DNA from: Candidatus Iainarchaeum sp.
Lineage (GTDB): Archaea > Iainarchaeota > Iainarchaeia > Iainarchaeales > CSSED10-239
Assembly (NCBI GenBank): GCA_028700115.1
Contig: JAQVTI010000009.1
Span: forward strand, 1-32,000
Length of the DNA: 32,000 nt
Reading direction: 5' to 3'
In this document: positions 1,780-26,452 of the stretch, in pieces
Layout: each line of letters opens with the position of its first letter
How positions within the stretch are numbered: the first letter of the stretch is position 1
The notes under the pieces: model-generated
The model's input: only the letters and a program-made list of their open reading frames with translations
Database searches by the model: none
What the model was told of the DNA's origin: nothing
Translations under genes and position numbers: made by a program

Positions 1780-3042
1780 ATGGAAAAACAATATTTAGAA
1801 CAGATAGTCTTAGATCAAAAAGAAAGGTTATCTAAATTAAAACAAGGATACCTAAGAGATAAACTTTATAATATAGCTGATATAATTAACCACAAAATAA
1901 ATATAGTTGTAACTGGTCATAGAAGAAGTGGTAAATCAACATTTTTATTACAATGGATGAATAAATATTATAATTCTAATTTCTACTATTTAGATTTTTC
2001 AGATGAACGATTAGTTGATTTTAAAACTACTGATTTTCAATTATTATATGAGATATTTTTAGAACATTTTGGAGAAAAGGATATTTTTTATTTTGATGAA
2101 TTGCAAGGAAAAAAATATGATTGGAATAAATTTGTAAATAGATTATATTCAGAAGGTAAAAGATTTTTTATTACAGGATCTAATGCAGATTTATTAAGTA
2201 AAGAAATATCTACTTATTTAACTGGTAGACATTTTGATATAATGTTATTTCCTTTTTCTTTTAAAGAATATTTGGGGTATAATAATTTTAATAAAAATTA
2301 TAAATCAACTACTGGTAAAGTAGAAGTAATAAAATATTTTAATAATTATATTAAACAAGGTGGTTTTCCAGAAGTTATAGTTTATAAAAATATAGATATA
2401 TTGGATAATATTTATCAAGATGTAATAAATAATGATATTTTAACAAGATATAATATAAAAGAAGAAGTTGAATTTAAAAAAATGAGTTTGTTTTTAATAT
2501 CTAATTTTTCAAGAGAGTTTTCATATACTTCTTTAAAAAATAATTTTAATTTAGGTAGCACTCATACAGCTAAAAAATATGTTTCTTATTTAATAAACTC
2601 ATATTTATTATTTGAATTACCAAAATATGATTATTCTTTAAAAAAACAAGAAACTTATGCTAAAAAAATATACGCAATAGATACTGGACTTATAAATAAG
2701 ATTGCTTTTGGTTTTTCTGAAAATATAGGTAGACTGTATGAAAATTTAGTATTTATTGAACTAAAAAGAAGAAATAAAAACATTTATTTTTGGAAAGATA
2801 AACTTGATCATGAAGTTGATTTTATGACTGTAGAAAAAAATAAAGTAATTTCTTTAATTCAAGTAACTTATGATCTAAGTAATTTAAAGACTAAAGAAAG
2901 AGAAATAAAAGGTTTGCTTTCTGGGTTAGATGAATTTAAATTAAAATCAGGAATAATTATAACTAAAGATTTAGAAAAAGAAGAAAAAATAGATGGAAAA
3001 ATAATAAAATATATACCTTTATGGAAATGGTTGTTAGAATAA
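1780..3042 (+). CDS. AAA+ ATPase, AAA_14/DUF4143 family (paralog 1)
   Basis: Walker A-type TGHRRSGKST and Walker B-like IFYFDELQ. ATG at 1780 is preferred over the track start at 1732 because paralog 17885-19144 begins MDKDYLERIILDQ versus MEKQYLEQIVLDQ here. The C-terminal third is nearly identical between the paralogs. Confidence 0.8.
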   Translation: MEKQYLEQIVLDQKERLSKLKQGYLRDKLYNIADIINHKINIVVTGHRRSGKSTFLLQWMNKYYNSNFYYLDFSDERLVDFKTTDFQLLYEIFLEHFGEKDIFYFDELQGKKYDWNKFVNRLYSEGKRFFITGSNADLLSKEISTYLTGRHFDIMLFPFSFKEYLGYNNFNKNYKSTTGKVEVIKYFNNYIKQGGFPEVIVYKNIDILDNIYQDVINNDILTRYNIKEEVEFKKMSLFLISNFSREFSYTSLKNNFNLGSTHTAKKYVSYLINSYLLFELPKYDYSLKKQETYAKKIYAIDTGLINKIAFGFSENIGRLYENLVFIELKRRNKNIYFWKDKLDHEVDFMTVEKNKVISLIQVTYDLSNLKTKEREIKGLLSGLDEFKLKSGIIITKDLEKEEKIDGKIIKYIPLWKWLLE

Positions 3043-3044
3043 TT

Positions 3045-3767
3045 ATGGACTATAATAAAGTATATAAAAATTATATAAAAAAATCAAATGATTTTACTTA
3101 TATATTTGATAAAACATATTTAAAAGAATTTGAAAATTTAAAAAATAAAAATATTTTAGATATTGGTTGTGGAGAAGGTAGATTTGCTTTTACTTGTTCT
3201 AAAAAAGGTGTTAAAATAGATGCTATAGATGTTAGTTCTAAATTAATAGATTTTGCAAAAGAATATAATTATTCAAAAAATATTAATTATTATACTTTAG
3301 ATTTTGGAAATGTTGATATAAATTAATTTAAATCTAAAAAATATGATTTTATTGTAATAAATATGGTTTTATTAAATATTTTTTCTGAAAAAAAGGTAAA
3401 TAATATTTTTGAAAAATGTTATAAATTACTTAATAAGAATGGAATATTTGCATTTTCTGATTTAAATCCTATCTGTAAGGCTTGTAATGAAAGTTATCCT
3501 CATAGAGTAAATATTTTTCCTAAAACTTTTAGTTATTATAAAAAAGGATCTAAATATAGTGCTATATTAAAGTTTAATTTTAAAAAAATAGAGTTTAAAA
3601 ATAAACATTGGAGATTATAAGATTATACTAATTTTTTAGTAAAAAATAATATGTATATTTATAAAATAATTGAACCAATCTATTCTAATACAAATAAAAT
3701 TAATAGTTATTTAAAAAATATAAAATTTCCTGAATTTATAATTTTTTTTTCTAAAAAGTTAAAATAA
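3045..3767 (+). pseudogene. class I SAM-dependent methyltransferase interrupted by two in-frame TAA codons
   Basis: Motif I ILDIGCGEGRF. Track ORFs 3021-3326 and 3363-3620 and the following 3621-3767 are all in one frame. Methyltransferase-like sequence continues across TAA 3324-3326 (..NVDIN*FKSKKYDFIVINMVLL..) and TAA 3618-3620 (..KHWRL*DYTNFLVKNNMYIYKIIEP..PEFIIFFSKKLK*). Confidence 0.6.
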
Positions 3768-4016: not shown

Positions 4017-4511
4017 ATGTTTCCAAATTTGAAAAATAAACATCTAAATGATTCTTTTTTTACTGCAAAAGATATAATTAAATATCTTAAAAAAAATAAA
4101 GTTTATCCTAAGTTTGAAATTCCAAAAGCTGTTATTTTTTGTTATGATAGATCTTTCTTTAATGATTTATTAAAAAAAGAAAAGCTTACTAAGACTAATT
4201 TTTATAATTTATATTTAATTAATAATACAAATAATAAGATAGGTATAATAGGTGGATTTGGAATAGGTGCTCCAAGTGTTGTTAGACTATTTGAAGAATT
4301 AATTGCTTTGGGTATTAAGAAATTTGTAAGTTTTGGAACATCTGGAACTCTTCAAAAAGATATTAATGTTGGAGATTTAGTTATTTGTAATAGAGCTATT
4401 AGAGATGAAGGGGTTTCTCATCATTATATTAAATCTTCAAAATATGCTTTTTCTTCTGATAAACTTTTAAAAAAAGCAAAAAATATATTTGATAAAAAAG
4501 CAAAAAAATAG
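4017..4511 (+). pseudogene. nucleoside phosphorylase (PNP/UDP family), C-terminally truncated
   Basis: GIIGGFGIGAPSVVRLFEELIALGIKKFVSFGTSGTL...VGDLVICNRAIRDEGVSHHY matches the PNP_UDP_1 core. The ORF stops about 30 aa after RDEG, where family members continue for roughly 100 aa or more (length recalled from memory). Confidence 0.5.
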
Positions 4512-4746: not shown

Positions 4747-4878
4747 ATGGAAAAAATTAATCAACAAGTTAGTCAACAAATTAATATAGATAAATTATTT
4801 GTAATTAAAAAATTACCCATAACATCAAAAGAAAAAAATGGGATCTTTGAAGCATGGGTTGAATCCAGTGATTTGTAG
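4747..4878 (+). CDS. candidate precursor peptide of cluster 1 (43 aa)
   Basis: Hand translation gives MEKINQQVSQQINIDKLFVIKKLPITSKEKNGIFEAWVESSDL*. A tggag motif lies 9 nt upstream of the ATG, and the stop lies 6 nt before the PqqD-like gene. Not in the ORF track (too short). Confidence 0.5.
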   Translation: MEKINQQVSQQINIDKLFVIKKLPITSKEKNGIFEAWVESSDL

Positions 4879-4884
4879 ATTTAA

Positions 4885-5136
4885 ATGAAAAAAATTATTT
4901 TTAATAATAGAGAATATTGGTATAGGCAAGAAAAAGAAGATGTTTATATCTTATTTGAAAAAACTAACTATTTTTATCTTGTAAATATGATTATTATTGA
5001 TGTAATAGAGTATTTAGCTAATAATAAAAGTTTATTAGAGATTACAGAAATTATTAATAAAAAATATCATATTAATATAACTGTAGATTTTTTAGTCACA
5101 AAATTAAAAAATATTGAGGGTATTATTAATGAGTAA
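4885..5136 (+). CDS. PqqD-like peptide chaperone (RiPP recognition element)
   Basis: 83 aa. The pattern ..VYILFEKTNYFYLVNMIIIDVIEYLANNKSLLEITEIINKKYHINITVDFLVTKLKNIEGII fits the PqqD strand plus winged-helix layout. Its end overlaps the start of a radical-SAM/SPASM gene. Confidence 0.6.
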   Translation: MKKIIFNNREYWYRQEKEDVYILFEKTNYFYLVNMIIIDVIEYLANNKSLLEITEIINKKYHINITVDFLVTKLKNIEGIINE

Positions 5137-6118
5137 CTATTTTAGAACCCCTTTATTTCCTAGTATTGATCTTAGTACAAAATGTAATCTTAGTTGTATT
5201 CATTGTAGAAATAACAAAAATAAAATAAGTAAAATTCCTTTTAAAAAAGTTATAGAACTATTAGATGAATTTGAATCTTTGGAAGTATTTCATTTAGCTT
5301 TTGCTGGTGGAGAACCATTTTTATTTCCTAAAATTTATGATGTATTAGAATATAGTCAAAAATTAAATGTGCCCAAGGTGACTATCGTAACTAATTGTAC
5401 ATTTATAAATAAAGATAGAATTGATAAATTAGATAATAATAAAATTAGGTTTGCTGTTAGTTTAGATGGACCAAAAGAAATACACAACTTTATTAGAAAT
5501 GCAGATGTATTTGATAAAGTAATAGATAATATTAAATATTTAGTTTCAAAAGGTTTTTTTGTTATGCTAAATTGTACTTTAATGAAATATAATTATAAAT
5601 ATTTCGATGAGATTATCAAAATTGCTAAAAATTTAAAAGTTAATCAAATTAATTTTTCAAAAGTATTTCCTGTACATTCTGAGATTATTAAATTTATGCT
5701 TTCAAAAGAAGAATTAGATGAGTTATATGAAAACTATAGAAAATATTCTGGTGAAGATAGTTTAGTTATATTCTTAGATAAAGGGTATATGGGTTTTCCT
5801 GATGCATATGATTCTGATATTGCATTTTCTATGGGTTGTAGAGCGGGTATTTCTCAAATAAATGTAATGTCGGATGGTTCTGTTGTAGGTTGTAAATTAT
5901 TACCGGATGTTTGTGCTGGAAATATTTATAAAAATACAATTAAAGAAATATGGGATGATAATAATAATTGGAAGTTATTCCGAAATGTTATACAAAATAT
6001 TAATAGTGATACTTGTAAAAAATGTGATTATTTTTATGCTTGTAAAGGTGGATGTAGAGCATTTGCTTATTATATGACTGGAGATATAAATGGTAAGGAT
6101 CCTTTATGTCCACTATAA
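5129..6118 (+). CDS. radical SAM enzyme with SPASM domain (PqqE/MftC-like peptide maturase)
   Basis: CNLSCIHC (CX3CX2C), GGEPFL, and C-terminal GCRAG...VGC...CKKCDYFYACKGGCRAFAY. ATG 5129 with gaggg 8 nt upstream is preferred over the TTG at 5114. Confidence 0.85.
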   Translation: MSNYFRTPLFPSIDLSTKCNLSCIHCRNNKNKISKIPFKKVIELLDEFESLEVFHLAFAGGEPFLFPKIYDVLEYSQKLNVPKVTIVTNCTFINKDRIDKLDNNKIRFAVSLDGPKEIHNFIRNADVFDKVIDNIKYLVSKGFFVMLNCTLMKYNYKYFDEIIKIAKNLKVNQINFSKVFPVHSEIIKFMLSKEELDELYENYRKYSGEDSLVIFLDKGYMGFPDAYDSDIAFSMGCRAGISQINVMSDGSVVGCKLLPDVCAGNIYKNTIKEIWDDNNNWKLFRNVIQNINSDTCKKCDYFYACKGGCRAFAYYMTGDINGKDPLCPL

Positions 6119-7747
6119 ATGATTACTATGAAAACTATTAGTGAGATAATTATAGAATTTATTAAATTTTTAAAAATTGATACTATATTTGGAATTCCTG
6201 GTTCTAATCTAGATTTTTTAAAGTATTTGTCAGAAGATAAAGTAATAAAATTTATTGTAAATAAAGATGAAAAAAATTCGCCTTATATGGCTATGGGGTA
6301 TACTAAATCATCTAATAAAATTAGTTGTTGTTTTGGTAGTGTAGGTGCAGGAGTTTTTAATTTAATTCCTGGCACAATATCTGCTTATTATGAATCTGTT
6401 CCTTTATTAATAATCGGTGGGCAGACTAATTTAAAAAATAAAGGTAAAAATACTTTTCAAGAGGCCTCTGGATGTGCTAGAAGTGTAAGTCAGTTAAATG
6501 AATTTAAAAAAATAACTTTGTACAATTGTATTTTAAATGAAAAAAAATTGTTCCAACAATTAGAAAAAGTATTTTTTAGTTTAAATGATTTTAGATCTGG
6601 TCCGGTATATATTGAATTTCCATCAGAACTTATGAATTTAAAAATTAATTTTAATAAAAAAATATTTTGTAATATGAAAATTAATTTTAATAGATATAGA
6701 TTAGATAAAATTAAATTATATGATGAATCAAAAAAAGTTAATCAATTAATTATTGATTTAAATAAATCTAAAAAACCAGTTATATTAATTGGTAATGGTG
6801 TTAAAGATTCAAAAGAAATTATTAAATTATCATCTAAATTTAGAATTCCTATTTTTTCTACATTTAAAGGAAAAGATAGGGTTACAAATAATTTTAAGTA
6901 TTATATGGGTTGTTTAGGATTAATTGGTAGTTCTATTGGTAATAATTATTTTAAAGAAAGTGATTTGTTAATATCTATTGGATCTAGTTTAAGTCAGTTT
7001 ACTACGGATAATTGGAAATTAATTGATAATAAAAATATTTATAGAATAGACACTATTAATGATGATATAACCAAACATAAGGGGATTGTAATTAAATCAG
7101 ATTATTCTGATGTTTTTAAAAAACTTTTAAGTTCTGATTACAAAGGAAATAATAATATTGTTGAATTAAAACAAAGTATTGATAATGAATTAAATAAATT
7201 TAATAGCCCTAAAATAAATTTAATAAGAAAATTAAGGACTAGTTTATCAAAAGACTCTATAATAGTTACTGAAGATATTTTTTTAATTGGTAAGTATTTT
7301 AAATTTTATAAAAATGATATTAATTTAAATTTTACAAATATTGCTCCTATTGGGTGTGCCTTATCTGGAGGCATAGGGGCTCAAATAGCAAATTCTAAAA
7401 AAAAAGTTATTGTAATTTTGGGGGATGGAGGATTTAACATGAATATTTCTGAATTAAATACAATTATGAATTATAAAATCCCTTTAAAAATTATATTAAT
7501 TAATAATAATGGTTATGGTATAGTGTATAAATCACAAATACATAAATTTAAAAATAATTTTTATACTCAATTTAAAAATCCAGATTATTTTAAATTAAGT
7601 CAATCATACAATTTTACTGCATATAATATAAATAATGTTTTTAAATTATCATTAAAAAAACTTAAAAAAATAATTAATTCAAATAAAACGGAATTAATAA
7701 ATGTAAAAGTAGATATTGACGAAAAAATAGGAATTAAAATATATTAA
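6119..7747 (+). CDS. thiamine-diphosphate-dependent enzyme, acetolactate-synthase-like three-domain architecture
   Basis: N-domain IDTIFGIPGSNLDFL...DEKNSPYMAMGY...VPLLIIGGQ, middle domain KPVILIGNGV, and ThDP-binding GDGGFNMNISELNTIMNYKIPLKIILINNNGYG. Confidence 0.8.
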   Translation: MITMKTISEIIIEFIKFLKIDTIFGIPGSNLDFLKYLSEDKVIKFIVNKDEKNSPYMAMGYTKSSNKISCCFGSVGAGVFNLIPGTISAYYESVPLLIIGGQTNLKNKGKNTFQEASGCARSVSQLNEFKKITLYNCILNEKKLFQQLEKVFFSLNDFRSGPVYIEFPSELMNLKINFNKKIFCNMKINFNRYRLDKIKLYDESKKVNQLIIDLNKSKKPVILIGNGVKDSKEIIKLSSKFRIPIFSTFKGKDRVTNNFKYYMGCLGLIGSSIGNNYFKESDLLISIGSSLSQFTTDNWKLIDNKNIYRIDTINDDITKHKGIVIKSDYSDVFKKLLSSDYKGNNNIVELKQSIDNELNKFNSPKINLIRKLRTSLSKDSIIVTEDIFLIGKYFKFYKNDINLNFTNIAPIGCALSGGIGAQIANSKKKVIVILGDGGFNMNISELNTIMNYKIPLKIILINNNGYGIVYKSQIHKFKNNFYTQFKNPDYFKLSQSYNFTAYNINNVFKLSLKKLKKIINSNKTELINVKVDIDEKIGIKIY

Positions 7748-7759
7748 ATAAGTGATTTT

Positions 7760-8074
7760 ATGAAATATGGTATTGAGTATATAGTTAAAAAAGATTTCTT
7801 AGGTACTATTAAAATTATAAAGAATAGATCTGATTTTAATAAAGTTAATGAAAATGATATTATTTTATTATTAAACACAAGTCCTGATGTTATTTTGTTA
7901 TTTAATAAAATTAAAGGTGTTATTATTGAAATAGGAGGCCAAACATCACATTTAACAATTATTGCAAGAGAGAGTAATATGCCTCTAATTAGATTAAATA
8001 ACGCTAAAGAAATAATTACAGATGGCGATTTTGTAAAAGTAGTTGAGGGTAATATTTATGTTAATGAAAATTGA
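7760..8074 (+). CDS. stand-alone PEP-utilising enzyme mobile (phosphohistidine swivel) domain protein
   Basis: DIILLLNTSPDVILLFNKIKGVIIEIGGQTSHLTIIARESNMPLI...DGDFVKV matches the GGxTSHxxIxARExxxP swivel-domain signature. Confidence 0.8.
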   Translation: MKYGIEYIVKKDFLGTIKIIKNRSDFNKVNENDIILLLNTSPDVILLFNKIKGVIIEIGGQTSHLTIIARESNMPLIRLNNAKEIITDGDFVKVVEGNIYVNEN

Positions 8075-9065
8075 GGTTCTTTGTAAAAAGATAGCTAAAG
8101 ATATATCTATAATACAAAAAGGAGGGGCAATTGAAACTCAGTGGCCTTTTTTAACTTCAGAAGTAGAAAACTATATTGGTGTTGATTTTATCAAACATTT
8201 AAGTAATATATTAGATGAAGCTTTATTAAACAATAATATAACACAAATTGCTACTAAATTGAAATACCCTTCAATGATAACTCAATATATTGCTTTGATT
8301 CATAGTGCAAATGTATTACCTCTTAATAAAAGAATTGAATTAATAACTAATTTAATAAGTATAATAGAAGAATTAAGAATGGACTATTTATGTAATAAAG
8401 GTATTAATATATTGCAAAATTTTGATATTAGTAAATTTTTATCTAATGATATTAAACAAGATATTATTCCTCAAAAGATATCTAGTATTTTATATGCTTA
8501 TACTGAAAAATTATATCCTACTTTAATGCGTTTGTCATTTGAACATCATGGTCCATATATTTTTAATAAAAAAAAATATGTTGTAAAAGAATATTTTAAT
8601 CTTAAAAATCAATATTCAAATATGTTTCCTGTTTTTAACTATGATAATGTTAAAATAATTCAAGAAATAGAAGGAGATTTTAATGTTGATTTTTTTGGGC
8701 ATTCAATAGGAGATTATAAAATAGTTAATTCGATTTTAGTTGTAGATAATGAAATAATTAGTGACACAAATAAATTTTTAGAAGAAATATTAATTAATTT
8801 TATTAATTTAGATAAGTTATTTTTAGAATATACTGTTGAAGATTATGCTAAAAATTTAACAAATGGATTGTTTTATTCTTTAAAACCATTAACTACTTTA
8901 ATTAATAAAGATTGGGTTCCATCTAAAAATATAATTGCTAAATTAAATGGGTTTAAATTATTTTTTCCTAGAGATAAAATTATTAATTATATAAAGTCTA
9001 CAGATATAAATGAAATAGAATTTAAAGTGTACTTAAGTTTTAAAAATATTTTTATTAAAGATTAA
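8058..9065 (+). CDS. unknown-family protein, conserved partner of the swivel-domain protein (paralog of 22952-23833)
   Basis: Overlaps the previous gene. By-eye homology to the cluster 2 protein: CKKIAKDISIIQKGGAIETQWPF vs CNKISKDMFYLCISGSTIHNWPL, and DFFGHSIGDYKI vs SFFGHIFKVEEI. No motif I recognise. Confidence 0.6.
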   Translation: MLMKIEVLCKKIAKDISIIQKGGAIETQWPFLTSEVENYIGVDFIKHLSNILDEALLNNNITQIATKLKYPSMITQYIALIHSANVLPLNKRIELITNLISIIEELRMDYLCNKGINILQNFDISKFLSNDIKQDIIPQKISSILYAYTEKLYPTLMRLSFEHHGPYIFNKKKYVVKEYFNLKNQYSNMFPVFNYDNVKIIQEIEGDFNVDFFGHSIGDYKIVNSILVVDNEIISDTNKFLEEILINFINLDKLFLEYTVEDYAKNLTNGLFYSLKPLTTLINKDWVPSKNIIAKLNGFKLFFPRDKIINYIKSTDINEIEFKVYLSFKNIFIKD

Positions 9066-9067
9066 TT

Positions 9068-9916
9068 ATGAAATATGAAATTCATTTTAATTATAAATGT
9101 AATCAAAATTGTATTTTTTGTAGTGTATTACAACATCCTCAAAGAGATCTAGAATTAAGTGATTTAGATCTAATTTTACCTTTTATTCATAATAATCAAA
9201 TTGTTCAAATTAGTGGAGGAGAGCCTTTATTAAATACAAATTTGATTAAATGGGTAAAAGAAATTAAAAAAAAAACTAGATTTATTTCTTTAACTACTAA
9301 TGGCACTTTATTAAATAAAGATAATTTAAATGAATTAATTAATTTAGGTGTAAATTGTTTTATTATTTCATTACATAGTAATACTATTAATAATTTTAAG
9401 AAAATAACTACAACTGATAACTTTAATAATGTAATAAATTGTTTAGAATTATTTAAAAAAATAAATAATAGTAGCATAAAAGTAATAGTTAATACCGTTA
9501 TTACAAAATATAATATTTCTGAAATTTTCGATTTATTTAAAATGTTACATGAAAAATATGGTTTTGCTAAAATAAAATTATCTTATCCTAGATTTTATAA
9601 ATTTGCAAAATCTGATTTTAATTGTAAAATTCATTTATTGTCATTAACAGATGTTCATTTCTTTTTAAAAGATATAATTAATAAACCTTATTTTGATAAA
9701 CTTATTATAGAAAATATTCCTTCATGTATAATTAAACCTAGTAAAGAATATAGAGACTGGTCTACTAAACTTTTAACAGTAGATGGAATAAAAGATAGTG
9801 TAGATAACACGAGATATTATATGAAAAAATGTGTTACTTGTAATTTAAGATTAAATTGTCAAGGATTTCACAAATATTATAATTATTATTTTGACGATTA
9901 TATTTTGGAAACATAA
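9068..9916 (+). CDS. radical SAM enzyme (second, 282 aa)
   Basis: CNQNCIFC (CX3CX2C), SGGEPLL, and C-terminal Cys cluster CVTCNLRLNC. Confidence 0.75.
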   Translation: MKYEIHFNYKCNQNCIFCSVLQHPQRDLELSDLDLILPFIHNNQIVQISGGEPLLNTNLIKWVKEIKKKTRFISLTTNGTLLNKDNLNELINLGVNCFIISLHSNTINNFKKITTTDNFNNVINCLELFKKINNSSIKVIVNTVITKYNISEIFDLFKMLHEKYGFAKIKLSYPRFYKFAKSDFNCKIHLLSLTDVHFFLKDIINKPYFDKLIIENIPSCIIKPSKEYRDWSTKLLTVDGIKDSVDNTRYYMKKCVTCNLRLNCQGFHKYYNYYFDDYILET

Positions 9917-9968
9917 TTGTTTAGATAGATTTATTAATTTGTAATTATATATATTTATAGTGTTGTAT

Positions 9969-10688
9969 ATGTTTAAAGGAAATATTTCAACTAATTTAAA
10001 ATTTACAAATAAATTAGATAGATTAAAAAAAGAAACTATAGCTTCTAAAAAAATTACTTTTGCAAGTTATCCAAAAAAAGAAGTTGCAATTAAGTATGTT
10101 GATGCTTTTTGGAAAAGATATTTTGATGGAAGCTTAGAAAAATCTTTATCTAAAAGAAAAGATAACCATTTTATTTCTAATTATAATCCAAATGTAAAAA
10201 TTTTTCCTATTTCTCCTACAGTTTCTGTAACTGTAAGAAAAATGAATTTAATAGATGTAAGACCTTATTTCGAAATTCATAAATATTATAAAGAAAAATT
10301 TAAAAATGCAAATTTTAAATATTCTAAATTTGTTTTAACAGATATAATAGATTATAAGAAAAAAGGGGATTTTTATTATGTTCTTGAAAGAATAGTTCCT
10401 TCTATTAGTGTATATGATTTTTATGTGTCAGATTTTAAGGGTTTTAAAGAAAATAGATTTTCTAAATCTTTTCAGAAAAGTTTAGAAAAAGTGGATTTAT
10501 TAAAGATGAAAGAAGATTTAGGTCCAGCATTAAATGAATTAAAACATTTTATTAATAATAATTCTAAATTTAAATTTAGACTTGATAATTCTAATAATAA
10601 TATTATTATAATTGATTATAATCCAGAAACACATAAATTTAAATTTGGATTAATTGATTTTGCTGGTATGAGTTCTAAAAGTTTTTAA
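9969..10688 (+). CDS. putative atypical protein-kinase-fold protein
   Basis: EVAIKYV (VAIK-type beta3 lysine), LDNSNNN (DxxxxN catalytic loop) and LIDFAG (DFG-like). All assigned by eye, and the motif spacing is compatible with a small RIO/Bud32-size kinase. Confidence 0.35.
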   Translation: MFKGNISTNLKFTNKLDRLKKETIASKKITFASYPKKEVAIKYVDAFWKRYFDGSLEKSLSKRKDNHFISNYNPNVKIFPISPTVSVTVRKMNLIDVRPYFEIHKYYKEKFKNANFKYSKFVLTDIIDYKKKGDFYYVLERIVPSISVYDFYVSDFKGFKENRFSKSFQKSLEKVDLLKMKEDLGPALNELKHFINNNSKFKFRLDNSNNNIIIIDYNPETHKFKFGLIDFAGMSSKSF

Positions 10689-14325: not shown

Positions 14326-15747
14326 TTATTTCTTCTTTGTGAAAAATTCAATAGCAACTTCTAGTTCTTTATGTGTTTTTGCATATTCTTCAATTGAAAT
14401 TCCTTTTTTATATGCCTCACATGCCTGAACTAAAGCCATTGCTCCTTCTTTTGTACCATTTGGATGAGCATGACAACCTGCACCCATAGTTGTAATAAAG
14501 TCAACTCCACCCATAACATCAATAAATGGTTTTAATAAAGTAGGGTTAAGTCCTCCTGAAACAATAGGTGTACATTTTTTTACACCTCTCCATTCATCTT
14601 CATCTAAGATAGCTTTGTGTGCATGATCTTTTTCTACATTTTCAATAAAATCTAAATCTTTTTCAGATATTTTACCCCAAGATTGATCAAAGAAAAATCC
14701 TTTTCCATATAAATCTAATATGTTTTTAGCAGCAGTGATGTCTGATTTAGGAGTTCCATCCATTTTTCCAACTCCAGCAGTTCCTGTATGTATCCCAGAA
14801 GCTCCTGCAAGTCTTGCAAATTTAGATAAAACTAAAACTGAAAATCCAAAATCATTTTCTGGTCTTGTAAAAGCACCGTGAGCTGCTCTATGGAAATGTA
14901 TAAAAACATCAGGATATCTTCTTCTTAGAGTTTGAACAGCCATCCATCCTGCAGTAATCCCATCTATTAAAAATGCATATGAACCTTTTTCAAATCCTGC
15001 ATTTTCAATCATTTCACATCTTTTAATCATTGTGTCAAAATCTGCAGCTGAAACATTAAAAGAGTGTACTTTTTTCTTTCCAGTCTCTTTTACTGCCTTT
15101 TCCATTGCGTTTTTTACATGTTTTACCATTTTATCGTATGGACAGAAGTCTTGGTCTGCTTGAGGCTCATCGTTTTTAACAAAGTCTCCTCCACCAACCC
15201 AGAAGTCATAACAAACTTCTGCATATTCTGCTGAAGTTAGTCCCATTTTTGGCTTTACAATTGTTCCTAGAATAGGTCTATTATAAACATCTAAGTATTT
15301 TCTCATATCATCAATTGTGTATGATGGTCCATCAAATTGTTCTAGCATAGAAGGAGGAAACCATAAGTCTAAAAGTTTAAGAGCAGAAACTTCTTTCATA
15401 CCTAAAACATTTCCTACAATGTAAGTTAGTATATTTTGTACATTTCCAACTCTATCAAAAAGTCTCCATGGATATGCAATCCATACAAGTTCTTTTTCTT
15501 GATCTAAGTCATAAACTAAAGCATTCATTTCTCTTGAGAATGCAGTTTCTGTTTGTACTTTAAAATTAGTCCCAGTTGAAGACTCAGCTGCAATTTCTGC
15601 TGCTGCTTGTAAGACATTTAGTCCTTTACCTTCTTTCATTCTAAAAACACAAAGAAGATATTCTCCATTTTTTGTGTTTGGTATATTAAAATTAACATAG
15701 GCTTTTTGTTTTTCATTTAAAGTTTCATATAATTCATTTTTATTCAT
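14326..15747 (-). CDS. rbcL: ribulose-1,5-bisphosphate carboxylase/oxygenase large subunit, form II/III-type
   Basis: AAESSTGTN, GTIVKPKMGL, CYDFWVGGGDFVKNDEPQ, HFHRAAHGA, ARLAGASGIHTGTAGVGKM, TPIVSGGLN. The core is form II-like, with an extra roughly 27-aa segment (KISEKDLDFIENVEKDHAHKAILDEDEWRGVKKC) before TPIVSGG. Confidence 0.9.
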   Translation of the reverse strand: MNKNELYETLNEKQKAYVNFNIPNTKNGEYLLCVFRMKEGKGLNVLQAAAEIAAESSTGTNFKVQTETAFSREMNALVYDLDQEKELVWIAYPWRLFDRVGNVQNILTYIVGNVLGMKEVSALKLLDLWFPPSMLEQFDGPSYTIDDMRKYLDVYNRPILGTIVKPKMGLTSAEYAEVCYDFWVGGGDFVKNDEPQADQDFCPYDKMVKHVKNAMEKAVKETGKKKVHSFNVSAADFDTMIKRCEMIENAGFEKGSYAFLIDGITAGWMAVQTLRRRYPDVFIHFHRAAHGAFTRPENDFGFSVLVLSKFARLAGASGIHTGTAGVGKMDGTPKSDITAAKNILDLYGKGFFFDQSWGKISEKDLDFIENVEKDHAHKAILDEDEWRGVKKCTPIVSGGLNPTLLKPFIDVMGGVDFITTMGAGCHAHPNGTKEGAMALVQACEAYKKGISIEEYAKTHKELEVAIEFFTKKK

Positions 15748-20723: not shown

Positions 20724-21134
20724 ATGCAAATGATAAAAGAAGACTGTATATTTTGTAAAATTGCACAAAAGCAAATTCCTTCAGCAATAATTTATGAAGA
20801 TGATAATTATTTAGCTTTTTTAGATAGAAATCCAATGCATCCTGGACACACTTTATTAATTCCTAAAGAGCATACAGATTATATATTTGATTTAAATGAT
20901 GAAAAACTAAGTGAACTTTTTATAATTTCTAAAAAGGTAAGTCAAATTCTAAAAAAAGCAACTAATTGTGAAAAAGTAGGAATTGCTGTGGAAGGTTTTC
21001 TAGTAAGACATGTTCATGTGCATTTAGTTCCATTAAATAATGGAGATTCACTAGATCCTTGTTTACAAAAACCAGCAGAACAAAGTGAACTTGATAGTGT
21101 TTATGAAAAAATAATTAAATCTAAAGAAAAGTAA
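20724..21134 (+). CDS. HIT family hydrolase
   Basis: CIFCKI...HPGHTLLIPKEH...RHVHVHLVP (histidine triad). Confidence 0.85.
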   Translation: MQMIKEDCIFCKIAQKQIPSAIIYEDDNYLAFLDRNPMHPGHTLLIPKEHTDYIFDLNDEKLSELFIISKKVSQILKKATNCEKVGIAVEGFLVRHVHVHLVPLNNGDSLDPCLQKPAEQSELDSVYEKIIKSKEK

Positions 21135-21255: not shown

Positions 21256-22185
21256 TTATTGTTGTTTATTATAAACTTTAACTATTTTTTTATAAAATTT
21301 ACACATTTCCATAAATTGATTAGGATTTGTCTTTTCTAAAAATTTGCACCCTCCTTTACAGTAATTCCATATTTCGCAATTTTTATTTAAACATATATTA
21401 ATATTATTTATTTTTTTTAGATTATATTTTTTATACATTGTTAATAAATGACATCTATCATAACTACCATCTGGAAATATTCCATAAGTTGTATTTTCAT
21501 AATAACCACAAAATTTATTTTTATTTAATTTATTATCTAAATAATTAAAAAAATAATTTGAAAATGGGGATATTTTTATATTTTTTTTATGAAGTGAAAG
21601 TATGTATTCTATATCTTTAATAGTTATTCTTTTTATAGAATTTATATTGGAAAAATTAAATCCTATGTAATTTGGATTTAATTTTAATAAATTAATTATA
21701 TTCTTTTTAAAATTAATTTTTGTAGATATTGTGGATGATATTTGTAATTGTATCCCTCCTTTTTTAATTAATTTAGCATTTGTTATAAGTTTTTTTATAT
21801 TGGTTGATCTATTTTTTAAATTAGTTTCAATAGGGTCAATACTTATAGTTATATTTTTAATACCCCAATTTTTAAGTTTTTTAATTGTATTTTTGTTAAT
21901 TAAAGTTCCATTTGTAATTATATTAAAATTGTAAATACCTAGTAATTTTAATCTTATTATAATTTTTTTAATGTTTTTTAAGTCTAATAAAGGTTCTCCA
22001 CCATAAAAAATAATTGTAGAATCCGATCTATATTTTTTTGGAACTAATAAGTTAATAGAATTTATAATATTATTTATGTCAAATGCATTTTTTTTATTTA
22101 ATAAATTAATTTTTTTTAAATAACAATATTTACAATTTAAGTTACAATTATATGTAGTTATTATAAATAATTTATATTTTTTCAT
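21256..22185 (-). CDS. radical SAM enzyme with SPASM/twitch-type C-terminus (cluster 2, distal)
   Basis: CNLNCKYC (CX3CX2C), YGGEPLL, and C-terminal CLNKNCEIWNYCKGGCKF. Confidence 0.8.
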   Translation of the reverse strand: MKKYKLFIITTYNCNLNCKYCYLKKINLLNKKNAFDINNIINSINLLVPKKYRSDSTIIFYGGEPLLDLKNIKKIIIRLKLLGIYNFNIITNGTLINKNTIKKLKNWGIKNITISIDPIETNLKNRSTNIKKLITNAKLIKKGGIQLQISSTISTKINFKKNIINLLKLNPNYIGFNFSNINSIKRITIKDIEYILSLHKKNIKISPFSNYFFNYLDNKLNKNKFCGYYENTTYGIFPDGSYDRCHLLTMYKKYNLKKINNINICLNKNCEIWNYCKGGCKFLEKTNPNQFMEMCKFYKKIVKVYNKQQ

Positions 22186-22619
22186 AATTCTTCTAAAATA
22201 TTAATGGTTTTTTCTAAATTATAATTTATAAATAAATTATCTCTTTTATTTTTATAATTTTTTATTAATTTATTTATATTATCGTTAATTAATATTGGAT
22301 CACAATTTAGAAATAATAATTTTTTACAGTTATTATAAAAATATGTGGTTAACAATAAATTATCTAGTATGTTATAATTTATTTTAACAAAAGTATTTAC
22401 CGATAAAGGATAAATTAAAATTAAATTTGGTTTTGGAATTGAATTAATATTACTCCATTCTATTTTTCTATTTTTTAAAAATTTGAATTTATTTAAATTA
22501 AATAAATTATATGAATTATTTGAAATACAATAATATACTTTATTTTTTTTAAGGATATTGTTAATTTTATCTAAATTCAATATATTTTGACCAGCACAAA
22601 CTAAAACATATATAATCAT
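22182..22619 (-). CDS. HFCD-type flavoprotein-like protein (LanD/EpiD/CoaC family), short form
   Basis: MIIYVLVCAGQN (Rossmann start) and YPLSVNTFVKINYNILDNLLLTT, compared with the family signature PASANT..K.A.G..DNLLT recalled from EpiD/Dfp. 145 aa, shorter than typical members. Confidence 0.5.
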   Translation of the reverse strand: MIIYVLVCAGQNILNLDKINNILKKNKVYYCISNNSYNLFNLNKFKFLKNRKIEWSNINSIPKPNLILIYPLSVNTFVKINYNILDNLLLTTYFYNNCKKLLFLNCDPILINDNINKLIKNYKNKRDNLFINYNLEKTINILEEL

Positions 22620-22948
22620 AAATTATCAATTGTAATGGTTTTTTTATTAAAATCAATTATTAATTTTTTATTATTTTTAAACAAATTTATATTATCTACT
22701 TTTATTAAAAATATTTTTTTTTCTCTAGCAAATATACTCATGTGACTTAAATAACTTCCATTTTCAATAATTCCCCCTAATGAATAAAGTAAATATGGAG
22801 AATCCATAGGGGTTAGGGATTTAGAAATTAGAATTTTATCTTTAATTTTATTTAAATTTGTATTATTTTTTAAAATCAAAGATTTTCCAGAAATTATTTT
22901 TGTCATATTAGATTTACTTAATATTTCAAATTTAATTTTATTTATCAT
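22616..22948 (-). CDS. stand-alone PEP-utilising enzyme mobile (swivel) domain protein, paralog of 7760-8074
   Basis: DKILISKSLTPMDSPYLLYSLGGIIENGSYLSHMSIFAREKKIFLI keeps the SH...ARE core of the swivel domain. Confidence 0.65.
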   Translation of the reverse strand: MINKIKFEILSKSNMTKIISGKSLILKNNTNLNKIKDKILISKSLTPMDSPYLLYSLGGIIENGSYLSHMSIFAREKKIFLIKVDNINLFKNNKKLIIDFNKKTITIDNL

Positions 22949-22951
22949 TTA

Positions 22952-23833
22952 TTATTCCTCTAAAAGATATTTTATGAAGTTATGTGTATTTTTAATTACT
23001 TTTGTTTTATTTTCAATAAATATACTTGCATCTTTATCAGTATCTACATTTAAATATTTGTTTACATCTAAAATATATTTATTTTTTAAATTAATATGAG
23101 TTGTGAATTGGTTATAAACATAATTAACTTTATCTTTATTTAATTTTAATTTTATATTTTTTTTAAGATTTATTAAATGTAGTGATAATTCATTTATTAA
23201 TTTATTTGGATTTATGGTTTTATTATTTTTCATAATTAAAAAATCATTTATTTCTTCTACTTTAAATATATGTCCAAAAAAGCTAATATCTGGTTTTTTT
23301 ATATAATTACTTATTAAAATATATTTTTGATTATTAATATTATATTCTCTATATAATTTCCCATTAAATGTGTATATGTTAAATCCAACTCCTCTAAAAA
23401 TTGGAAAATAAATTTCATTTAAATTATCTAATAAAAATACTGTAGAATAATATAATTCTCTATTTTTAATAAATCTACCTAATTTTAAGTCTTTATTTGG
23501 ATTTAATTTTAAATCCATTGTTTTTTCTAATGTTATGTCTTCATATTTATCAATTAAATAAGTTATTATTTTTTTAAAATATTTTTTTTGTGTAATTTTA
23601 TTTGTTTTTTTATTTATTAACATTAGTAAATATGATCTTAATTCAAAAAAAGAAATATTTGATATATTATTATCAATATAATCTTTAAGATATGGTGTGA
23701 AATTTTCTGCGAATATATTAGAAATTATGGTTGATGATAATGGCCAATTATGAATTGTAGAACCAGATATACATAGATAAAACATATCTTTACTTATTTT
23801 ATTACAAATTTTATTTATTAATTTCTTTTCCAT
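22952..23833 (-). CDS. unknown-family protein, partner of the swivel domain (paralog of 8058-9065)
   Basis: ATG at 23833 (MEKKLINKICNK..) is preferred because it abuts the upstream stop and aligns with the cluster 1 paralog. See the shared segments listed for 8058-9065. Confidence 0.6.
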   Translation of the reverse strand: MEKKLINKICNKISKDMFYLCISGSTIHNWPLSSTIISNIFAENFTPYLKDYIDNNISNISFFELRSYLLMLINKKTNKITQKKYFKKIITYLIDKYEDITLEKTMDLKLNPNKDLKLGRFIKNRELYYSTVFLLDNLNEIYFPIFRGVGFNIYTFNGKLYREYNINNQKYILISNYIKKPDISFFGHIFKVEEINDFLIMKNNKTINPNKLINELSLHLINLKKNIKLKLNKDKVNYVYNQFTTHINLKNKYILDVNKYLNVDTDKDASIFIENKTKVIKNTHNFIKYLLEE

Positions 23834-23834
23834 G

Positions 23835-24401
23835 TTATTCTGCCTTATATTTAAGTAATATATATTTATTTTCTTTAAAATAAATTTCAACACCAATATT
23901 TATTAAATCTATTGCCCTTATAGGTAATAAATTTTCACATAAAATTTTATTTTTGTAATTATTAGATAAATTTTGCCAATAATTATTTATAAATTTATTA
24001 TATTCTAAATTACTTAATTTTTTCTTAATTTTATTTAGGATTTCAGTTTCTTTTTTTTTATTAATTGAAATTATATGATAAAAAATACCTTTGTCTTTTA
24101 ATAATGATTTACATTTTTTAATAAATTTTATGCCATTATTTTTGAAATATATATCATTAAATAAATTTACTGAATATATTATATCATATTTTGTTTTATT
24201 AAAATTATATTTTAAAAAATCTGATTTTATATAATGTATTTTTTTTGTTTTTAAATTATTTATTTGAATTAAATCTAATAAAGTTATTTTATGGCCTTTA
24301 TTTAATAATTTTAAATAGTTTTTATTGTTATTAACCCCTATTTCTAATATATTTAAATTTAAAGTACTTGAAATATCATTATATATAATATCATATAACA
24401 T
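23835..24401 (-). CDS. methyltransferase-like protein (class I fold, degenerate SAM motif)
   Basis: LNILEIGVNNNKNY..HKITLLDL, YDIIYSVNLFNDIY and LLKDKGIFY follow the motif I / post-I / II-III order, but the GxGxG motif is not intact. Confidence 0.45.
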   Translation of the reverse strand: MLYDIIYNDISSTLNLNILEIGVNNNKNYLKLLNKGHKITLLDLIQINNLKTKKIHYIKSDFLKYNFNKTKYDIIYSVNLFNDIYFKNNGIKFIKKCKSLLKDKGIFYHIISINKKKETEILNKIKKKLSNLEYNKFINNYWQNLSNNYKNKILCENLLPIRAIDLINIGVEIYFKENKYILLKYKAE

Positions 24402-25536
24402 ATTTATCTTTTATTTTTATGATTTTGTTAAATAATTTATTGGTTACCGTACATAAAGGATCTGATCCTAAAAGTTCTTGTGCATAGATACAACCTCCAT
24501 ATCTTGCACACAAAGAATTATTTTTCAAATAACAATTTTTACAATCGTTTATTTTATAAGAATTATATAATTTGTTTTTTATATTATATATTTCTTTTAA
24601 ATCATTAATAAACTTTATATTTCCTAATTTATGTTTTTCTAAACCTACAAATCTATTACATAAGTAAATGTCTCCATTATTATTAATACCTAACATATTA
24701 TCTTTAGTAATACAACTAGTAGTAAATCTACAATTAGGTAAAGGCATATTAAAAAAAATAGCATCAATATAACTATCAAAATCTTTTATAGTAATTTTTT
24801 TATTTTCTAAATAATAGTTAAAACAATCGTATAAGAATTGCACATATTTATTAACTAAATTATTATCTACAATATTTTTTCCTCTTCCTACTGGATACAT
24901 TAAATTTATTTGTAAATCTACATTTAAATTATTATAAAAATCTATGTAATTTATAGGTTTTATTTTGTTTACAGTAAAATTATTTAATGTAGATAATACA
25001 TTAAATTTATTCTTATTTTTTTTAAGTATATTAATACCTCTTATAACTTGATTAAAAGAACTAAAATCATTTTTATTAACTCTATATTTGTCATTAATAA
25101 ATTTTGGTCCATCTAAACTTACCCCTATAGCAAAATTATTTTTTTTAAAAAATTTAGAATAATCTTCATCTATTAAAGTTCCATTTGTTTGAATTTTATT
25201 TACAAAATGAATATTTTTTGGGAATATATCTTTTTGTAAATCAATTATATTTTTATAAAAATCTAACCCAGCTAAAAGTGGTTCTCCTCCATGCCAGGCA
25301 TATTCTAAAGTTAGAAATCGCGGATTATATTTTTTGACTTTATTTATATCTTTTTTAGAATATATTGAATTTATATAATCTAAATTTTTATAAAATTCAT
25401 TAATAGTTAAATTAAATATTTTTTTAATTACATCTATAGATATTAAATCATATTTTTGATTGTATGAACCGTATGTATAACAATATTTACAATTTAAATT
25501 GCATGCATTTCCAACAGGTCTTATTGAATATCCCAT
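24391..25536 (-). CDS. radical SAM enzyme with SPASM domain (anSME/peptide-maturase-like; cluster 2, proximal)
   Basis: CNLNCKYC (CX3CX2C), HGGEPLL, and C-terminal CRFTTSC...LCNRF...CKNCYLKNNSLCARYGGCIYA. Confidence 0.85.
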   Translation of the reverse strand: MGYSIRPVGNACNLNCKYCYTYGSYNQKYDLISIDVIKKIFNLTINEFYKNLDYINSIYSKKDINKVKKYNPRFLTLEYAWHGGEPLLAGLDFYKNIIDLQKDIFPKNIHFVNKIQTNGTLIDEDYSKFFKKNNFAIGVSLDGPKFINDKYRVNKNDFSSFNQVIRGINILKKNKNKFNVLSTLNNFTVNKIKPINYIDFYNNLNVDLQINLMYPVGRGKNIVDNNLVNKYVQFLYDCFNYYLENKKITIKDFDSYIDAIFFNMPLPNCRFTTSCITKDNMLGINNNGDIYLCNRFVGLEKHKLGNIKFINDLKEIYNIKNKLYNSYKINDCKNCYLKNNSLCARYGGCIYAQELLGSDPLCTVTNKLFNKIIKIKDKYVI

Positions 25537-25544
25537 ATTATTTT

Positions 25545-25691
25545 TTAATATCCATCTACATATTCATCAGCACCGTGTGCTGTTTTTCTAACTAAATCAA
25601 AATAGATATTGTCTTTATCTAATTTATTTTTTTTAAGTAATTCATAATTTTTAAACCTACATTTTATTGCATTTGATTCAATTTTAGCCAT
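25545..25691 (-). CDS. candidate precursor peptide of cluster 2 (48 aa)
   Basis: Base-by-base hand translation gives MAKIESNAIKCRFKNYELLKKNKLDKDNIYFDLVRKTAHGADEYVDGY*. ggagga lies 8 nt upstream of the ATG, and the stop lies 8 nt before the rSAM start. Not in the ORF track. Confidence 0.5.
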   Translation of the reverse strand: MAKIESNAIKCRFKNYELLKKNKLDKDNIYFDLVRKTAHGADEYVDGY

Positions 25692-25774: not shown

Positions 25775-26452
25775 TTTTTTAGTTTCTGGATCATTATAAA
25801 AATCAGAAACACAAAGGCAGATATTATTAATTTAGTTAGAGTAGAAACACCTGAAATACCAGAACCTGCTTTAAGGGAATCAATATTAAATGCAATGATT
25901 CATAGAAATTATTTTATTCAAGGAAGAATATTAATAGAAATTTATGAAAATAGAGTGGAAATATTAAATCCTGGAAAACTATTATTTGATCCAAAAGAAT
26001 TTGGTAAAGTAAGTGTTTCAAGAAATCCTATATTAGCAGATTGTATATTAAGAACTAGTTTGATAGAAAAGATAGGTTCTGGTGTTAAAAGAATTAGAAA
26101 ATTAGTTCCAAATGTTAAGTTTAATATAGATACAGATTGGTTTAGTGTTATATTTAAAAGAGATATATCTACTAAAGTGGATAGTAAAGTAAGTGTGGAT
26201 GCCGGTATAAATGCACCTGTAAATGCACCTGTAAATGCACCTGTAAATGCACCTGTAAAATTAAATAATTTACAATTAAACATTATAACAGAAATACGAA
26301 AAAATAAAAATATAACTTATGATGATTTAAGTAATATATTTTCTATACATAGAACTACAATTATGAGAAATATTTCTAAATTAAAGAAATCAGGAATATT
26401 AGAAAGAATTGGATCTGATAAAACAGGATTTTGGAAAGTAAATAAAATTTAA
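25775..26452 (+). pseudogene. 5'-truncated remnant of an AlbA_2/HATPase_c_4-type ATP-binding wHTH regulator
   Basis: The frame is open from 25775. Family-typical ..EPALRESILNAMIHRNYF.. lies across the first ATG (25895). The C-terminal wHTH is ITYDDLSNIFSIHRTTIMRNISKLKKSGILERIG. The N-terminal domain of the family is absent. Confidence 0.5.
26209..26256 (+). repeat. perfect 12-bp x4 tandem repeat (aaatgcacctgt) encoding (NAPV)4
   Basis: Counted directly: units at 26209, 26221, 26233 and 26245. Confidence 0.9.

Follow-up and report, generated by a model that had tools for sequence, protein, structure and literature searches.

Two gene pairs in a 32,000-nucleotide stretch of DNA from the DPANN archaeon Candidatus Iainarchaeum sp. 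(contig JAQVTI010000009.1, positions 1 to 32,000; the whole stretch is referred to here as the window) each combine a free-standing phosphohistidine swivel domain with a member of a previously undescribed protein family, which we call the partner. We consider it probable that swivel and partner are two of the three parts of a split dikinase of the phosphoenolpyruvate (PEP) synthase/rifampin phosphotransferase (RPH) type, and that a ribosomal peptide is the likeliest acceptor here. The explanation draws on domain identities, homology, conserved adjacency of the genes, gene fusions and conserved precursors. Judging from gene content and order, the dikinase most likely has three parts, with the partner on the phosphoryl-acceptor side and the free swivel as carrier. 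In its full form the proposal has a free swivel of about 100 amino acids carry phosphate from an ATP-grasp protein to an acceptor enzyme of new fold, which would phosphorylate or phospho-activate a ribosomal peptide; we offer this form more tentatively, as less likely than not. Least certain are the acceptor's identity and, in this genome, that of the phosphoryl donor.

Swivel domains and the partner family

Both swivel proteins match the PEP-utilizers swivel domain (PF00391) above the Pfam gathering cutoff of 23.1 bits, swivel 1 at 50.7 bits (E 1.4e-13) and swivel 2 at 33.0 bits (E 4.7e-8). They are 37% identical to each other over 63 amino acids (E 7e-8), and among NCBIfam models swivel 1 aligns best with the swivel portions of PEP synthase and of PRK08296-type enzymes. 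The core of swivel 1 reads IGGQTSHLTIIARE, with the catalytic His64 within GGQTSH (codon 7949-7951), and that of swivel 2 reads NGSYLSHMSIFARE, with His69 within a degenerate GSYLSH motif (codon 22742-22744). Checked against the catalytic loop pattern G-G-x-T/S-S-H-x-A/S-I-x-A-R-E, the loop of swivel 1 reads GGQTSHLTIIARE; the loop of swivel 2, GSYLSHMSIFARE, retains the His, the Ser before it and the ARE, and has lost the second Gly and the Thr. Both are PEP-utilizers swivel domains with a predicted phosphorylatable His, as a preliminary description of this DNA had supposed on seeing the swivel core in the two small open reading frames (ORFs).

Each swivel gene adjoins a gene for the partner, in a gene cluster that we number with it. 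Partners 1 and 2 are 23% identical over 242 amino acids (E 5e-6), and a hidden Markov model (HMM) built from 107 members of the family matches partner 1 at 4.4e-78 and partner 2 at 1.3e-29. The preliminary description had taken the two for homologs, and this holds, together with the strings that it quoted (CKKIAKD..QWPF in partner 1, CNKISKD..NWPL in partner 2, FFGH in both), the sizes that it gave (335 and 293 amino acids, counted from the ATG at 8058 and at 23833) and the opposite gene order that it pointed out. In cluster 1, on the forward strand, the swivel precedes the partner with a 17-nucleotide overlap; in cluster 2, on the reverse strand, the partner precedes the swivel across a 3-nucleotide gap.

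Word-indexed homolog searches returned only three to five relatives, and it was an exhaustive profile search that revealed the family. It comprises 151 representative clusters at 50% identity and ranges over DPANN and other archaea, uncultured bacteria and Rhodococcus plasmids. A profile scan of genome contigs with a small alignment gave one locus, and a profile scan of viral contigs for the partner family gave no match.

The partner, an alpha+beta protein, represents a new family, absent from every domain library. Neither partner matched Pfam or NCBIfam, and the 107 members showed no consistent match there. A profile search of the PDB with the partner gave chance-level matches only, the best being a Met-tRNA synthetase (E 0.0019) along a helical stretch. 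An AlphaFold2 model of partner 1 reached a predicted local distance difference test score (pLDDT) of 96.5 and consists, at high confidence, of a helical bundle, an antiparallel sheet and C-terminal helices. Foldseek with this model found no relative in the PDB; an earlier model from four sequences (pLDDT 50.8) was kept out of the fold search. Structure and profile searches alike placed partner 1 in no known family, in keeping with the earlier suspicion of a new fold or family.

Partner 1 holds all the residues conserved in the family (W29, P30, R107, D109, C112, N117, E150, E162, H164, G165, P166, Y167, K177, Y179 and D211), of which the polar set D109, N117, E150, E162, H164, K/R177 and D211 suggests a candidate active site. 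Partner 2 belongs to a divergent subfamily; its nearest relatives (P0014, P0015 and P0017) are 39-48% identical to it, the copy on contig L026 is 39% identical, and it keeps W30-P31, E140, R162, Y164 and FFGH. In the public annotation, partner 1 (P0001, PHR26_00955) has 263 amino acids and starts 72 codons downstream of the ATG at 8058. The family-conserved K11, D15, G23 and W29-P30 precede that start, so that the gene model on deposit has probably been cut short.

The domains and regulators known from dikinases gave no match to the family by sequence or profile. PPDK_N (PF01326), the ATP-grasp module, has no profile match in the partner, whose sequence also lacks the GGK and RSS(A/T)xED motifs, as had been remarked before. 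The PEP-utilizers_C TIM barrel has no Pfam match in any of the 107 members, and the partner 1 model does not show its beta/alpha-barrel architecture; the PDRP/PSRP kinase/pyrophosphorylase family has none in these or in the two partners. The full-length NCBIfam models for RPH, PigC, PRK06241 and PRK08296 matched 0 of the 107. For RPH, alignment of the partner family with an RPH alignment in hhalign gave a probability of 0.4%, hmmsearch against RPH-Lm gave an E of 0.15 in an eight-sequence database, and no RPH chain was among the 50 best Foldseek matches listed for the partner 1 model.

Gene order and fusions across relatives

For the probable role of the partner we count genomic context as decisive. 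Sixteen distinct contexts were sampled, namely the two in the window and those on L001, L003, L008, L009, L010, L013, L016-L020, L025, L026 and L027. In 15 of the 16 the swivel adjoins the partner or is fused to it, and the genes usually overlap or abut. A PPDK_N module is also present in nine, two of which are fusions. In six (L001, L003, L008, L018, L019 and L020) it is a stand-alone gene for 302-316 amino acids in the same locus, with canonical motifs (GGKGASLGEM, RSSATAEDS), and in a Rhodococcus plasmid operon a PPDK_N+swivel protein accompanies the partner-family gene.

The two fusions, P0073 (796 amino acids) and P0135 (769 amino acids), join PPDK_N, swivel and partner in the domain order of PEP synthase, with PPDK_N at about 1-290, the swivel at about 320-392 and the partner domain at 436/466-763. 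P0073 aligns with positions 95-462 of the 798-position PEP synthase model, after which the partner domain replaces the TIM barrel. Since the partner is fused where the PEP/pyruvate TIM barrel sits, it would be a third, acceptor-side module and not the nucleotide-binding half. The preliminary description had tentatively cast it as the nucleotide- or substrate-binding half of a split dikinase-like enzyme; the split dikinase-like phosphotransfer system survives from that proposal, and the nucleotide half falls with the separate PPDK_N genes in relatives and the two three-domain fusions. Two further arrangements fit a phosphorylated product: in P0054 the partner is fused to a HAD phosphatase-type domain, with a free swivel preceding it, and a His_Phos_1 gene lies directly upstream of P0135. 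The L009 locus was also considered as a version of cluster 2 with a fused PPDK_N, and was rejected when its radical SAM enzyme proved not to be orthologous to the maturase of cluster 2.

Under the mechanism that we propose, the ATP-grasp protein, whose gene adjoins the pair in relatives and is joined to it in certain bacteria, would use ATP to phosphorylate the conserved His of the free swivel. The phospho-swivel would act as a small diffusible carrier, not as a tethered domain, and would dock on the partner, which, in the place of the TIM barrel, would bind the acceptor and catalyse phosphoryl transfer to it. We infer the direction of phosphotransfer and the catalytic role of the partner, as well as, further below, the peptide as acceptor.

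The partner might instead stand on the phosphoryl-donor side, as a nucleotide half or an Enzyme I-like protein that binds ATP, PEP or another high-energy phosphate and charges the swivel His. From the swivel the phosphate would go on to the peptide, to another enzyme of the cluster or, where PPDK_N is present, to ADP/AMP on that protein. Such a role would suit the window, L017 and L026, which have swivel and partner and no PPDK_N, and it has a precedent in Enzyme I of the phosphotransferase system (PTS), which charges its swivel His from PEP at a domain other than an ATP-grasp. Dikinase half-reactions are moreover reversible, and HpeH, a subunit of one of the split dikinases compared below, still catalyses phospho-exchange on its own (PMC12167813). 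We nevertheless regard a donor-side partner as quite unlikely: signatures of an ATP-grasp, a P-loop or PPDK_N are absent from it, as are matches to Pfam or NCBIfam, the complete canonical PPDK_N of the fusions would make a second nucleotide site redundant, and no other candidate acceptor protein is conserved alongside the pair.

The fusions also bear on whether the partner is an enzyme at all. PDRP/PSRP modifies the Thr that neighbours the catalytic His in PPDK and PEP synthase. In favour of a comparable role for the partner, as a regulator or scaffold without catalysis, are its constant place beside a swivel domain and the regulatory-type Thr that swivel 1 retains (GGQTSH). Swivel 2 and the L026 swivel lack this Thr, however, and the partner resembles neither PDRP nor any other Pfam family. 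With the fusions placing it exactly at the catalytic third-domain position, and with many conserved acidic, His and Lys residues in it, we think a regulatory or scaffolding role highly improbable, and retain the acceptor-side enzyme as the preferred reading.

Radical-SAM peptide clusters and the candidate acceptor

The window has a G+C content of about 20%, and both pairs lie in clusters of the kind that produces ribosomally made, post-translationally modified peptides (RiPPs) by means of radical S-adenosylmethionine (SAM) enzymes (Table 1). Cluster 1 runs from a precursor through a PqqD-like protein, a radical SAM/SPASM maturase, a thiamine-diphosphate (TPP) enzyme, swivel, partner and a second radical SAM enzyme to a 242-amino-acid protein of no recognised family and a TsoY-family membrane protein. 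Cluster 2 runs from a precursor through a radical SAM/SPASM maturase, a methyltransferase, partner, swivel and a flavoprotein-family protein to a second radical SAM enzyme.

Table 1. Coordinates in the window of the swivel-partner pairs and the surrounding cluster genes (aa, amino acids)
Feature	Coordinates	Strand	Remarks
Cluster 1 precursor	4747..4878	+	43 aa, ends GIFEAWVESSDL
PqqD-like, probable peptide-recognition element	4885..5136	+	83 aa; weak NCBIfam PqqD_rel_WgkC, E 0.051
Cluster 1 radical SAM/SPASM maturase	5114..6118	+	PF04055 1.2e-21, PF13186 1.3e-8
TPP enzyme, acetolactate-synthase-like	6119..7747	+	TPP_enzyme N, M and C domains
Swivel 1, stand-alone phosphohistidine domain	7760..8074	+	104 aa; PF00391 match
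Partner 1, unannotated family	8058..9065	+	335 aa from ATG 8058; no Pfam, NCBIfam or PDB match
Second radical SAM enzyme, cluster 1	9068..9916	+	PF04055 2.5e-20
Second radical SAM enzyme, cluster 2	21256..22185	-	PF04055 2.6e-19
Small flavoprotein-family protein downstream of swivel 2	22182..22619	-	PF02441 24.0 bits, cutoff 22.7
Swivel 2, stand-alone phosphohistidine domain	22616..22948	-	110 aa; PF00391 match
Partner 2, divergent subfamily of the same family	22952..23833	-	293 aa from ATG 23833
SAM methyltransferase, cluster 2	23835..24401	-	Methyltransf_11 3.7e-5
Cluster 2 radical SAM/SPASM maturase	24391..25536	-	PF04055 and PF13186
Cluster 2 precursor	25545..25691	-	48 aa, ends AHGADEYVDGY

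Cluster 1 is repeated gene for gene in L003 and L008. These keep the core of the precursor (...LPIT[SA][KR]EK[NK]GIFEAW[VA]ESSDL), a PqqD-like ortholog at the matching position (55-58% identical) and the maturase (66-67% identical); orthologs of the second radical SAM enzyme (35-37% identical) lie upstream on the other strand. The TPP enzyme, which falls below the cutoff of every specific NCBIfam model, is directly upstream of the swivel in the window, L003, L004 and L008. For cluster 2, L026 repeats precursor, radical SAM/SPASM, partner and swivel: a 48-amino-acid ORF at the matching position is 46% identical to the precursor and ends AHAEDEYADKY, and the maturase ortholog (51% identical) comes directly before partner and swivel, the methyltransferase being absent. 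L027 repeats partner, swivel and flavoprotein-family protein, the last again after the swivel, and in both L026 and L027 the ortholog of swivel 2 follows the partner.

Across independent metagenomes, what both cluster types conserve as their core is precursor, radical SAM/SPASM enzyme, swivel and partner. Both clusters have the feature by which we recognised radical-SAM RiPP clusters, a short precursor conserved beside a radical SAM/SPASM gene across genomes, and a modified peptide is their predicted product. The two copies of the pair are anciently diverged and built into two different RiPP clusters.

It is plausible from this arrangement that the enzyme acts on the peptide, since the precursors are conserved and the pair belongs to the conserved core of both cluster types. 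As acceptor, a hydroxyl or enol of the precursor's conserved C-terminal core would be most likely (cluster 1, ...EAWVESSDL; cluster 2, ...DEYVDGY), and candidate groups are the Ser-Ser of ESSDL, the Tyr of DEYVDGY or a group made by the radical SAM enzymes. The group may be present in the native peptide or formed after radical-SAM modification, and the phosphate may be a final decoration or a transient activation. To our knowledge, all characterised relatives phosphorylate hydroxyl or enol oxygens.

Several observations weigh against the proposed mechanism and against the peptide as acceptor. No PPDK_N was found in the window by tblastn, and an HMM made from eight PPDK_N sequences found in relatives matched no ORF of the window even with filters off. 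There is likewise none within 9 kb in L016 and L017, and none on the 13-kb L026 contig. The PPDK_N gene of the cluster 1 relatives comes after the partner, a position held in the window by the second radical SAM gene. Without PPDK_N in these 32 kb, the ATP-dependent first step has no local enzyme, which leaves a donor gene outside the window or a donor of a different kind. Partner 2 and its subfamily have no equivalents of E162, H164-G-P and D211, which are kept in the wider family, and together with the degenerate GG/T motif of swivel 2 these losses mean that cluster 2 may work differently. Finally, peptide clusters are not where most of the sampled family members occur: the setting is a small-molecule cluster in L019 and L020, housekeeping-like in L010, L017 and L018, and a catabolic operon in Rhodococcus. 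The peptide acceptor is accordingly a reading of the local context, and a small molecule is a serious rival even in the clusters of the window.

In that event the three-part dikinase would be real, and its acceptor here might be an enol or keto-acid akin to what is turned over by the TPP enzyme, which in cluster-1-type loci always lies directly upstream of the swivel, or a co-substrate later attached to the peptide. Company of this kind is found elsewhere in the family, with DAHP synthase, PRAI, GHMP kinase, pyridoxal-phosphate (PLP) decarboxylase and an AMP-binding enzyme in the L019/L020 clusters and aldehyde dehydrogenase and biotin carboxylase genes in the Rhodococcus operons, and the characterised relatives all act on small molecules (pyruvate, rifampin, phenols and MBC; PMC4844700, PMC12167813). 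What cluster 2 of the window and L026 share, however, is only precursor, radical SAM/SPASM, partner and swivel, which leaves the peptide as the only obvious common substrate, and the two pairs of the window are only 23% (partners) and 37% (swivels) identical, each tracking a different precursor family. We therefore hold a small-molecule acceptor to be unlikely in these clusters, somewhat less so than a donor-side partner, and keep the peptide as the likeliest acceptor.

On the archaeal contigs L019 (1438-11040) and L020 (3324-13831), partner-swivel and PPDK_N lie inside a small-molecule cluster with genes for an AMP-binding enzyme, an NAD-dependent reductase/epimerase, a PLP decarboxylase, a GHMP kinase, a CN-hydrolase-like protein and PRAI; the L019 cluster includes a DAHP/KDO8P-synthase-type enzyme.

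Two proteins were considered as PPDK_N and rejected. The 242-amino-acid ORF at 9960-10688, after cluster 1, had no support as a diverged PPDK_N from profiles with filters off, tblastn or the PDB; it has no Pfam, NCBIfam or PDB match, and no counterpart in L003 or L008, which carry PPDK_N instead. By eye, its EVAIKYVD, LDNSNNN and LIDFAG resemble the VAIK, D-x4-N and DFG of protein-kinase-like folds. By the HMM with filters off, the 290-amino-acid protein that L017 encodes upstream of its swivel is no PPDK_N either. Just upstream of its pair L017 has two HIT genes (6427-7792), with the 290-amino-acid ORF in between, and one of these HIT genes is 35% identical to a gene of the window for a HIT-family nucleotide hydrolase/transferase (20724-21134), which adjoins cluster 2. 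The HIT genes near the pairs could be a coincidence or a link to AMP/nucleotide handling.

Other genes lie beside the pairs and clusters. HExxH proteins (HELMHLFFHH, HELTHFLYF, AHELMHLL) are encoded just downstream of the pair in two unrelated loci (L001 5962-6666; L026 10003-10779 and 10784-11602) and could belong to the same pathways as peptidases. Immediately downstream of cluster 1, the membrane protein at 10793-11947 matches the NCBIfam model of the TsoY (seleno)protein (317.7 bits, cutoff 250) and a SLAC1/TehA-type Pfam family; it may be an exporter or unrelated. Just upstream of cluster 1, 3021-3326 and 3363-3620 are like two halves of one SAM methyltransferase that a stop or frameshift has split, 4017-4511 holds a short piece of a PNP_UDP_1 phosphorylase, and all of these look like decayed genes. 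The ORF at 25895-26452, beside cluster 2, has an HATPase_c_4 fragment, a helix-turn-helix domain and four tandem NAPV repeats, and looks like the C-terminal remnant of an AlbA_2/Schlafen-type regulator. Between the clusters, 14326-15747 encodes a homolog of the RuBisCO large subunit with both Pfam domains, which fits the nucleotide-salvage RuBisCO common in DPANN archaea.

Comparison with known dikinases and phosphocarriers

PEP synthase (PpsA) and PPDK use a TIM barrel as acceptor module. The system described here shares with them the ATP-grasp module (PPDK_N) and the swivel His domain, and the fusions P0073 and P0135 have the domain order of PEP synthase, which is also their best NCBIfam match over the first 400 or so residues. 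In the fusions, however, the unrelated partner domain stands where those enzymes have the PEP-utilizers_C TIM barrel, and the window encodes the parts in separate genes, without the ATP-grasp.

The same three-module logic is found in RPH and its kin (PigC/HapC/RedH and the flavonoid and zearalenone phosphotransferases). RPH, PigC/HapC and related enzymes combine an ATP-grasp, a swivel His and a variable acceptor-binding domain, of the RPH type, that sets specificity (PMC4844700). Their domain order differs, being ATP-grasp, acceptor, swivel, and the partner is unrelated to the rifampin-binding domain by sequence or profile. Closer in genetic layout are HpeHI, CreHI and the phenylphosphate synthase PpsAB, biochemically established dikinases that are split, with a separate ATP-grasp subunit, and form transient complexes (PMC12167813). 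These resemble the present system in their separately encoded subunits and free ATP-grasp; they differ in having two parts, with the swivel fused to an RPH-type acceptor domain, whereas here the swivel of about 100 amino acids is separate, the parts are three and the acceptor protein is of another family. We therefore read the system, whose partner shows no sequence or profile relation to the RPH-type domain, as a probable three-gene form of this known logic, with a new acceptor module. Two-component dikinases, themselves recognised only of late, would be extended to a three-component form with the swivel as a separate carrier, and a sizeable protein family is defined with a testable role, as a third kind of acceptor module beside the TIM barrel and the RPH-type domain.

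As a small phosphohistidine protein that would shuttle phosphate between separately encoded enzymes, the swivel also recalls the PTS (Enzyme I/HPr). The Enzyme I swivel is homologous to the swivels of the window (weak NCBIfam matches). The carrier here is a swivel domain and not HPr, however, and there is neither a PEP-binding TIM barrel nor a sugar transport context.

A literature search for dikinases or PEP-utilizers in RiPP clusters gave nothing relevant, and the window, from a DPANN archaeon, would provide the first association of swivel-dikinase chemistry with peptide clusters of the radical-SAM kind. Should the peptide be the acceptor, peptides would have a new route by which they are phosphorylated or activated, and RiPPs their first dikinase-type tailoring system, present in duplicate; other archaea and Actinobacteria would use this acceptor family in small-molecule pathways.

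The remaining comparison is with VadK (Rv1127c), a truncated PPDK that consists of PPDK_N and swivel without a third domain and autophosphorylates on His; its phosphoryl acceptor is not defined in the same paper (PMC13400623). In the literature consulted, no partner-type protein is linked to VadK. The window has no VadK-like protein, in contrast to Rhodococcus, where a protein matching the PRK05878 model (472.6 bits, cutoff 456), of the VadK type with PPDK_N and swivel, shares an operon with a partner-family gene and a free swivel. On the plasmids pR8L1 of Rhodococcus sp. 008 (L025 8091-12879; WP_058227909.1) and pRB98 of R. oxybenzonivorans (L028), partner-family "hypothetical proteins" stand beside stand-alone swivels and the truncated PPDK. 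On pRB98 biotin carboxylase genes come after these genes, and one protein is like a swivel-partner fusion, a weak match (E 5e-6 in a small database). The Rhodococcus arrangement points to a catabolic route of the phosphorylate-then-carboxylate kind, and for VadK-type enzymes it offers a candidate for the third domain that they lack. With a partner-family gene beside a VadK-type truncated PPDK, these operons offer cultured, tractable models.

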